The notes beneath the pieces are model-generated. The model saw only the letters and a list, made by a program, of their open reading frames with translations, made no database searches and had not been told where the DNA came from. A program made the position numbers and the translations under genes. 64,000 nucleotides of DNA from the NCBI RefSeq assembly GCF_002854065.1, contig NZ_CP024147.1; one strand, given 5' to 3'. Of this stretch, positions 37,979 to 38,760 are shown one piece after another. The stretch's first letter is position 1, and the number at the start of each line of letters is the position of its first letter. Origin of the DNA: Escherichia coli (lineage in GTDB: Bacteria; Pseudomonadota; Gammaproteobacteria; Enterobacterales; Enterobacteriaceae).

Positions 37979-38760
37979 GCGTGCACGTTCATGTTTACGT
38001 GTTAACTCACTGTCGACTTTTGGATGATGAAGGAAGTGATTATATGTAATAATTTAACTCTGAAGGGCATTGCTTAATGGCATAGACATAATAGTTACCT
38101 TTATGAGTATTTCACTGATGCTTAGAAAAATAGATAAATTTTTCTGTGGTAAAAAGAGAAGTAAACAAATGACATGCATGTTTCTGTTGTAGTGATATCA
38201 ACTCTACACAGTGATATTAAATGGTGGGAAACACTCTAAAGTATCAAAAAACGCTCATTTAAAATTATTTGCATGCAATTTAAAAGCATATCTTATTACT
38301 AATTGGAATTTGATGTTGCTATATTGATGTCTATATTAATAATGCCTGTGAATGGTATTTTTGATGTATTTGATATGTTATCAATTTATATTATTTACAA
38401 ACTAATTGTTTTAAATAATACATAGCTGATTATGCGGAAATAAATAATTTCCCACCGGAATTAAGTAGCGGTGGTGACAAGTATTTTCATCTACGTAACT
38501 ATTCGGAATATTCAGAATATACTAGCGGTTTTTTTTTGAGTTTGATGATTTTTATCAAATCATGACTTTTTTCCTGAAAAGTCAGTAGATATTCATAGGC
38601 AAGTAAGGTTTTATACTTTGCTGACAGGATTCAGGCCTGTCTCAGACTGACATGGATGTAATGAACAAAAGGGAATGGCTATGGAAAATGAGCATCAATA
38701 CAGTGGTGCCCGGTGTTCAGGGCAAGCCGCATATGTTGCTAAACGTCAGGAGTGCGCAAA

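Follow-up and report, generated by a model that had tools for sequence, protein, structure and literature searches.

The AT-rich spacer between yjiC and iraD in Escherichia coli as the probable regulatory region and long 5' leader of iraD

The AT-rich stretch between yjiC and iraD, at positions 37979-38760 of the window (the whole 64,000-nucleotide stretch of NZ_CP024147.1 analysed here), is very probably the regulatory region of iraD together with its long 5' leader. IraD is an anti-adaptor that shields RpoS from RssB/ClpXP, and the region sets the amount of IraD and hence the speed of RpoS stabilisation in starvation and DNA damage. The sequences of every published element of this region were found in the window at matching positions. 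Together they would form a mechanism in which about 530 bp of curved, 28%-GC DNA, reaching from the divergent yjiC to promoter P2, is bound and repressed by H-NS, and in which two ppGpp-responsive promoters fire inside the H-NS-bound DNA. P1 (TSS 38344) would act in late log phase and under replication stress to give a 417-nt leader carrying ytiC and ytiD, and P2 (TSS 38624), used by sigma70 or sigmaS, would give a 137-nt leader. In both leaders, CsrA would occupy GGA sites around the idlP ribosome-binding site; blocked idlP translation would in turn block iraD translation and destabilise the mRNA.

P1 and P2, the CsrA footprints, translation of the three ORFs, the coupling, and H-NS ChIP and repression are published experimental results from K-12 (among others PMC5574718, PMC3661553 and PMC6064147). 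We infer that the elements work in this strain as they do in K-12, save for a ytiD without its ATG and a nonsense allele of yjiC. Two promoters, nucleoid-protein binding and small ORFs are already published for this exact locus. The present analysis adds a strain-corrected map and a conservation picture, with a near-frozen core, a drifting idlP peptide and an optional P1 half; mildly new are the way conservation is distributed, the finding that the species can dispense with the P1 half, and the strain lesions (yjiC nonsense codon, ytiD start loss, IS1 splitting P1 in a near-identical relative). For genome scans, the lesson is that this position belongs among known regulatory regions that contain annotated small ORFs and should not be listed as unexplained non-coding DNA.

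Locus, left boundary and base composition

Out of 5426 complete E. coli genomes, 5397 matched a 951-bp query around the stretch, and in 4887 the match covered at least 80% of the query. The ORF map and the RefSeq annotations of near-identical genomes give the gene order uxuR-yjiC-ytiC-ytiD-idlP-iraD-hypT, then iadA, so that the spacer is flanked by a divergent yjiC, and hypT is convergent on the 3' side of iraD. The IraD protein scores 300.7 bits against the NCBIfam equivalog NF010726 (cutoff 198) and also contains the Pfam domain GPW_gp25. The main features of the locus are as follows.

36345-37118, plus strand: uxuR
37979-38089, minus strand: former 5' end of yjiC, K-12 codons 1-37 (alignment and in-frame translation)
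38090-38623, strand unassigned: AT-rich spacer of 28% GC with helically phased A/T tracts (composition, phasing and promoter-island listing)
38761-39153, plus strand: iraD coding sequence
39146-40057, minus strand: hypT

The left boundary had initially been taken as the start of yjiC. This is wrong: position 37978 belongs to an internal in-frame Met downstream of a nonsense codon. The yjiC product is a DUF2686 protein; K-12 yjiC, which encodes 276 aa, starts at window position 38089 according to translation and a three-way alignment. In this strain its codon 12 is changed from CAA to TAA, giving a stop at 38054-38056 on the minus strand (in-frame translation MSMPLSNALQS, then stop). Positions 37979-38089 are therefore a decayed part of the yjiC coding sequence, which leaves a true spacer of 671 bp, measured from the K-12 yjiC start; Sass et al. 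(bioRxiv 10.1101/2021.05.20.444958) gave 672 bp for the yjiC-iraD spacer and called it "unusually large" for E. coli. Of the nine E. coli strains compared, three carry the nonsense allele: the strain of the window, AJ5 and strain 167. AJ5 and strain 167 also have a 44-bp deletion deeper in yjiC, and PGAP labels the gene "frameshifted" in this lineage. Overall, yjiC appears to be decaying in the lineage of the window.

The GC content is 0.329 over 37979-38760 and 0.320 over 38090-38760, against 0.491 for the whole window, in which only 0.7% of 671-bp windows are equally AT-rich. The yjiC-iraD gap ranks fourth among the gaps between long ORFs, whose median is 139 bp. Runs of at least five A/T number 11.9 per kb in the stretch against 3.7 per kb in the window, and the tracts are phased at ~10-11 bp (power 0.88, against 0.26 ± 0.16 in shuffles, 0.6% of which reach 0.88). 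The P2 leader, comprising the last 137 nt (38624-38760), has 48% GC and hence is not AT-rich. The first-pass annotation had described an AT-rich gap of about 780 bp with runs of A/T tracts: that the gap is long and AT-rich is borne out, as are the tracts, by both run density and helical phasing, while its left edge at 37979 and its last 137 nt are not. A separate low-GC cluster lies at about 20470-24320, ~15 kb upstream, where 671-bp windows go down to 31% GC.

AT-richness far above background and curvature-prone phased A/T tracts are consistent with H-NS-type DNA. The spacer between yjiC (minus strand) and iraD (plus strand) is listed as "promoter island" entry 4554354_526, H-NS-bound in the Kahramanoglou and Oshima ChIP sets (flag K), and the same table flags it as foreign DNA (PMC3661553); by our own arithmetic, its U00096.2 coordinates convert to -662..-136 from the iraD ATG. 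In addition, a passage of PMC6064147 that cites Battesti 2012 states that IraD expression is inhibited by H-NS. The suggestion that the region is bound by nucleoid proteins is upheld by this K-12 ChIP listing and the reported repression. A scan for the H-NS high-affinity motif returned one 9/10 match in the region (38131-38140), at chance level (8 found against 5.9 expected). Like other H-NS promoter islands (PMC3661553), the spacer combines ~28% GC and phased A/T tracts with a low-GC neighbour, yjiC, and with IS1 in relatives. Unlike most of them, which yield little productive transcription, it has two mapped and regulated promoters that serve a core stress regulator.

Promoters and the probably CsrA-controlled leader

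Transcription of iraD starts at -417 (P1) and -137 (P2) from its ATG, and both promoters are ppGpp-dependent and AZT-inducible, according to bioRxiv 10.1101/2021.05.20.444958 and PMC5574718. P1 is the main promoter in late log phase, P2 works in every growth phase, and substitutions in the P1 or P2 -10 element affect distinct expression phases (bioRxiv 10.1101/2021.05.20.444958). Park et al. (PMC5574718) assigned sigma70 to P1 and sigma70 or sigmaS to P2. The two promoters map to the window as follows.

38310-38315 (-35 TTGATG), 38332-38337 (-10 TATATT), TSS 38344, plus strand: P1 (published offset and pattern scan)
38612-38617 (-10 TATACT), TSS A at 38624, plus strand: P2 (published offset mapped to the window)

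A -10-like hexamer thus precedes each mapped TSS, as would be expected of two promoters. The pair TTGATG/TATATT from the pattern scan, with 16-bp spacing and 7 nt from the end of TATATT to the TSS, probably represents the P1 hexamers. For P2, the distance from TATACT to the TSS is likewise 7 nt, and the GGA of CsrA site BS1 follows the TSS at exactly 3 nt, in agreement with Park et al. Promoter-like hexamer pairs are not enriched in the stretch (5 found against 5.1 expected from composition and shuffles). The prediction of more than one promoter is supported by the published TSSs and mutant genetics, with matching hexamers in the window. Not every E. coli has both promoters, P1 being absent from about 9% of the genomes, and the P1 hexamers are not kept in E. 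albertii. The relative BKQ37E, with 100% identity to the query apart from this insertion, has an IS1 of 768 bp (L019 735-1502) between the P1 -35 and -10 elements, with a 9-bp target duplication corresponding to window 38325-38333; judged from its position, this insertion is a natural P1 knockout. A different IS1, in OkiPb01688 (L006), lies directly against the start of yjiC, and this strain has also lost the stretch running from iraD towards yjiK.

The leader downstream of P2 carries the following elements.

38627-38629, plus strand: GGA of CsrA site BS1
38654-38656, plus strand: GGA of CsrA site BS2
38672-38674, plus strand: GGA of CsrA site BS3, in the idlP SD
38683-38685, plus strand: GGA of CsrA site BS4
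38680-38688, minus strand: putative DnaA box TTTTCCATA at -81 (published offset mapped)
38681-38764, plus strand: idlP (ORF27), 27-codon leader ORF (annotation)
38748-38752, plus strand: iraD SD AGGAG, whose GGA at 38749 is not bound by CsrA (PMC5574718)

CsrA footprints in the leader were reported at -112..-103, -90..-84 and -78/-77, with BS1 just 3 nt from the P2 5' end (PMC5574718). In the window, four GGA motifs at the published offsets, and a fifth, unbound one in the iraD SD, make up a set of putative CsrA sites like that of K-12, and each of the BS2, BS3 and BS4 footprint ranges contains a GGA. Among the leader ORFs, only ORF27 matters: its SD shares sequence with BS3, its stop codon runs into the iraD start, and repression of iraD by CsrA works wholly through blocked ORF27-iraD translational coupling (PMC5574718).

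The idlP TGA overlaps the iraD ATG (AAAATGATG; ATGATG context), and an SD of its own, GGGA at 38671-38674, lies 7 nt 5' of the idlP ATG. In all eight Escherichia sequences compared, idlP has 27 codons with neither an indel nor a premature stop. The stop/start overlap, the separate SD and the frame kept in these eight sequences are what a coupling uORF would be expected to have. Within the gap-free idlP block, to which the substitution counts are confined, with frame translation further upstream being confounded by indels, pN and pS are about equal (0.11/0.12, 0.20/0.19 and 0.18/0.26), and changes at codon positions 1, 2 and 3 number 13, 11 and 7, with no third-position excess. Length, frame and ends are thus conserved and the peptide is not, as would be expected for a coupling device, and free peptide drift at fixed length and frame fits a purely mechanical role for idlP. 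The published features of the idlP-iraD mechanism recur here, namely the ATGA overlap, a GGA in the uORF SD, and GGAs upstream of and at the uORF start; nothing about it differs in this strain.

A 35-codon ORF at 38691-38795 (plus strand), in the +1 frame to idlP and with a conserved ATG, runs into iraD; it is open in every Escherichia lineage examined, and substitution counts cannot separate it from idlP as the selected frame.

Structure probing by Park et al. (PMC5574718) indicated that leader RNA structure sequesters the iraD SD. A single-sequence MFE fold of the P2 leader gave z = -0.62, and RNAalifold on seven Escherichia leaders gave a covariation term of -1.52, with nearly all pairs invariant and the SD unpaired in the consensus. 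The present folds neither support nor contradict the published structure.

The part of DnaA in the published iraD model is contested: genetics and EMSA were positive (bioRxiv 10.1101/2021.05.20.444958), and ChIP-seq found no DnaA at iraD in vivo (PMC11317965). The box at -81, TATGGAAAA, matches the consensus at 8 of 9 positions, and no stringent box occurs anywhere in the region.

The upstream small ORFs and alternative readings

The distal half of the region contains two further frames.

38342-38425, plus strand: ytiC, ORF23 of Park et al. (annotation and translation)
38422-38565, plus strand: ytiD-homologous frame, ORF47 (alignment and translation)

Contrary to the label "non-coding" in the first-pass annotation, ytiC, ytiD and idlP are annotated inside the stretch (RefSeq, MG1655), and translation was shown for all three, whose lengths as leader ORFs are 23, 47 and 27 codons, with idlP coupled to iraD (PMC5574718); the accompanying surmise that small ORFs might be hidden here was correct.

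The two upstream frames differ from their K-12 forms. For ytiC, the K-12-type ATG is at 38342, and PGAP in close relatives uses a strain-specific ATG at 38327; the frame ends at a TAG in this strain, and K-12 continues for 7 more codons. The ATG and TAG positions are common to E. albertii, in which the peptide sequence differs. For ytiD, the K-12 ATG is ATA here (38422-38424), so that no intact ytiD is present; the A allele at 38424 occurs in five of the nine sampled E. coli and in E. albertii, and the K-12 state at this position may be the derived one. The single change G to A at 38424 converts both the ytiD ATG to ATA and a ytiC TGG to the TAG stop, and PGAP still annotates "protein YtiD" from the ATA start in genomes with the A allele. 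No intact ytiD ORF was found in E. albertii or in the short haplotype described below, and what is conserved of the ytiD "C-terminus" falls on the palindrome and dyads, elements of the DNA or RNA; by this comparison, ytiD is not a conserved gene. Because ORF47 is dispensable for iraD control, loss of the ytiD ATG does not affect the assignment of the region.

These observations bear on the possibility that ytiC and/or ytiD encode small proteins with a function, such as a hydrophobic membrane peptide produced in replication stress, and that the distal half is a small-protein operon and not a mere leader. Translation of both lacZ fusions argues for it (PMC5574718), as do the published AZT inductions (ytiC 260-fold, the most induced gene of the genome; ytiD 33-fold, idlP 18-fold, iraD 14-fold, yjiC 11-fold) and the E. 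albertii ORF, which has the same ATG and TAG as ytiC in the window and is hydrophobic too. We nevertheless consider it unlikely: a start-to-stop mutation of either ORF leaves iraD expression unchanged (PMC5574718), the ytiD start and frame are lost as described above, the start and stop of ytiC vary among strains and its peptide is not kept in E. albertii, neither matches an NCBIfam model, the hydrophobic residues follow from T-rich composition alone, and about 9% of E. coli, along with several Escherichia species, lack the module altogether. The same induction gradient, falling from ytiC through ytiD to iraD, could mean that many P1 transcripts are short or processed, and would suit an independent trans-acting sRNA, a discrete transcript from P1 or another promoter ending before P2, for which a T9 run at 38530-38538 and the twin hairpins at 38537-38585 (z -1.9) might be adduced. 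The steep drop from ytiC to ytiD could, however, come from processing or from baseline effects, with constitutive P2 transcripts lifting the downstream baseline. A scan of Rfam at a permissive E-value gave nothing near the gathering threshold, its best matches being eukaryotic snoRNA and lncRNA models at E 0.27 or worse; a pattern scan found no terminator-like site on either strand; the T9 run has no G+C-rich stem 5' of it, and folds around it are no better than shuffles; and no sRNA at the yjiC/yjiD (iraD) spacer is reported in the literature searched. With neither a family match nor a unit running from a promoter to an intrinsic terminator, the small RNA suggested at the outset is unsupported, and we regard such a gene as very improbable.

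It is hardly credible that the stretch is inert, horizontally acquired filler with a single ordinary iraD promoter near the gene. The low-GC yjiC (39.5%) and the spacer do look foreign and are flagged as foreign genes (PMC3661553), the distal half is dispensable in nature, and promoter-like matches are at chance level; but two TSSs are mapped with separate genetics, the effects of P1 and P2 -10 substitutions differ in phase, P1 transcripts give translated leader ORFs (PMC5574718) and the distal part is strongly AZT-induced. The reading of the stretch as the iraD regulatory region and leader is favoured by the co-transcription and joint stress induction of ytiC, ytiD, idlP and iraD after AZT.

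Conservation and haplotypes

The window resembles the K-12 iraD region (Merrikh 2009; PMC5574718; Sass 2021/2022) in locus, in neighbours and in having all elements at the same offsets from the iraD ATG. The two are identical over 38473-38770 and 96.8% identical across the 951 bp. The window differs from K-12 in the yjiC nonsense codon, the ATA of ytiD, a ytiC with 7 codons fewer at its 3' end and an additional ATG upstream, the loss of one base pair at 38099/38100, and SNPs dispersed over the sequence upstream of 38473. In a within-species comparison of nine K-12-type E. coli sequences, 38528-38706 contains zero variable sites and idlP only one, against 6-8 variable sites per 100 bp in the distal half, 7 in iraD and 15 in yjiC. 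The distal rate predicts about 19 variable sites in 38528-38760, and from the counts seen against this expectation we infer that the P2/leader/idlP core is under strong constraint. This core is the most conserved part of the locus and persists throughout Escherichia: haplotypes ~25% divergent still have the P2 region, the GGAs of BS2 and BS3, the idlP frame and the block that holds the iraD SD and start. Most lineages retain the GGAs of BS2-BS4; the short haplotype has lost BS1, and E. albertii has lost BS4. The blocks conserved in all lineages are the following.

38500-38519: 20-bp near-palindrome TATTCGGAAT/ATTCAGAATA, 105-124 bp upstream of the P2 TSS
TTTGATGA…TCAAAT dyad
AAAAGTCAGTnGATATTC, spanning the P2 -35 region
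P2 -10 region
BS2 and BS3 GGA motifs
First 18 nt of idlP
Invariant 35 nt covering the idlP end, the iraD SD and the iraD start

The dyad belongs to a pair of candidate structures just 5' of the P2 -35 region.

38537-38585, plus strand: twin AT-rich hairpins or palindromes, TTTGATGA..TCAAATCA and TGACTTTT-N6-AAAAGTCA

The twin hairpins fold at -14.3 kcal/mol (z -1.9), a marginal value that 10 of 200 shuffles equal, and their right arm AAAAGTCAGT is present in all lineages. The near-palindrome does not vary among the nine E. coli, and most of it persists in the Escherichia haplotypes; E. albertii has lost one 9-bp unit. Its surroundings include the motif CAGAATATACTAGCGG of the LysR-type regulator HusR (YnfL), which binds the iraD region in gSELEX (PMC12844172); in the window, this motif lies at 38513-38528 and overlaps the palindrome. 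The palindrome core GAATATTC resembles an RcsAB box. Measured against published consensus sequences, TCGGAATATTCAGA has one mismatch to the RcsB pattern TN(G/A)GAN4TC(T/C)NA and agrees with the RcsAB sequence TaAGaatatTCcta at 10 of 14 positions, including four of the five conserved bases. With one mismatch allowed, the RcsB pattern occurs 44 times in the window where 65 occurrences are expected, a number at or below chance, and the RcsB-box reading was dropped as evidence for this reason; the literature searched contained no paper linking RcsB to iraD. Elsewhere, in the yjiC-P1 spacer, a perfect 10-bp palindrome TTGCATGCAA at 38268-38277 adjoins a block AAAAAACGCTCATTT (about 38247-38261) that is kept in E. 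albertii.

In 491 of the 5426 complete E. coli genomes (~9%), the proximal third alone matches, at ~75% identity. This short haplotype has no yjiC, P1 or ytiC; uxuR and iraD are 413 bp apart, and homology to the window begins at ~38430.

L005 2851-4072, also L008, L010, L011 and L012: examples of the short haplotype

Between iraD and hypT, these genomes carry a pseudogene fragment of a PEP-binding protein. Because iraD is a known insertion point of GimA, the ibeA island, the fragment looks like, and probably is, a GimA remnant. Further examples of the short form are E. whittamii, Escherichia sp. E1V33 and two divergent "E. coli" genomes. In E. albertii, yjiC is present and the spacer measures ~765 bp. 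The GimA-type (B2/ExPEC-associated), E. whittamii and E1V33 short haplotype shares the P2 region, BS2-BS4, idlP and the iraD start block with the window. It differs in the absence of yjiC, P1, ytiC and BS1, in the 413-bp spacer and in an IraD that is about 75-80% identical.

Tentatively, the proximal ~330 bp common to all Escherichia haplotypes could be the ancestral iraD unit, with the palindrome as its operator and distal yjiC-P1-ytiC as a lineage-variable, H-NS-silenced add-on, although we think this rather unlikely. Such a unit may hold the palindrome at 38500-38519, the twin hairpins, P2, the CsrA sites and idlP, and HusR and RcsB may be candidate regulators at the operator. If so, presence, absence or IS1 disruption of the distal module would set RpoS stabilisation of a strain in late log phase and replication stress.

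Several further observations concern iraD itself. K-12-type IraD (38761-39153) is 75-80% identical to that of all other Escherichia lineages (L009 2501-2884 compared), and E. albertii IraD is also divergent despite a K-12-like leader and yjiC. The iraD locus looks mosaic, or else iraD looks unusually fast-evolving in the main E. coli lineage. The convergent iraD and hypT overlap by 8 bp at their 3' ends (39146-39153), so that the transcript of each would enter the other gene; the two are separated in GimA-type strains. Finally, the 605-bp contig NZ_ABFU01000118.1 (L007), assigned to Bacillus coahuilensis m4-4, carries idlP, an IraD that is 98% identical and a HypT end that is 100% identical, and is almost certainly E. 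coli contamination of that assembly.
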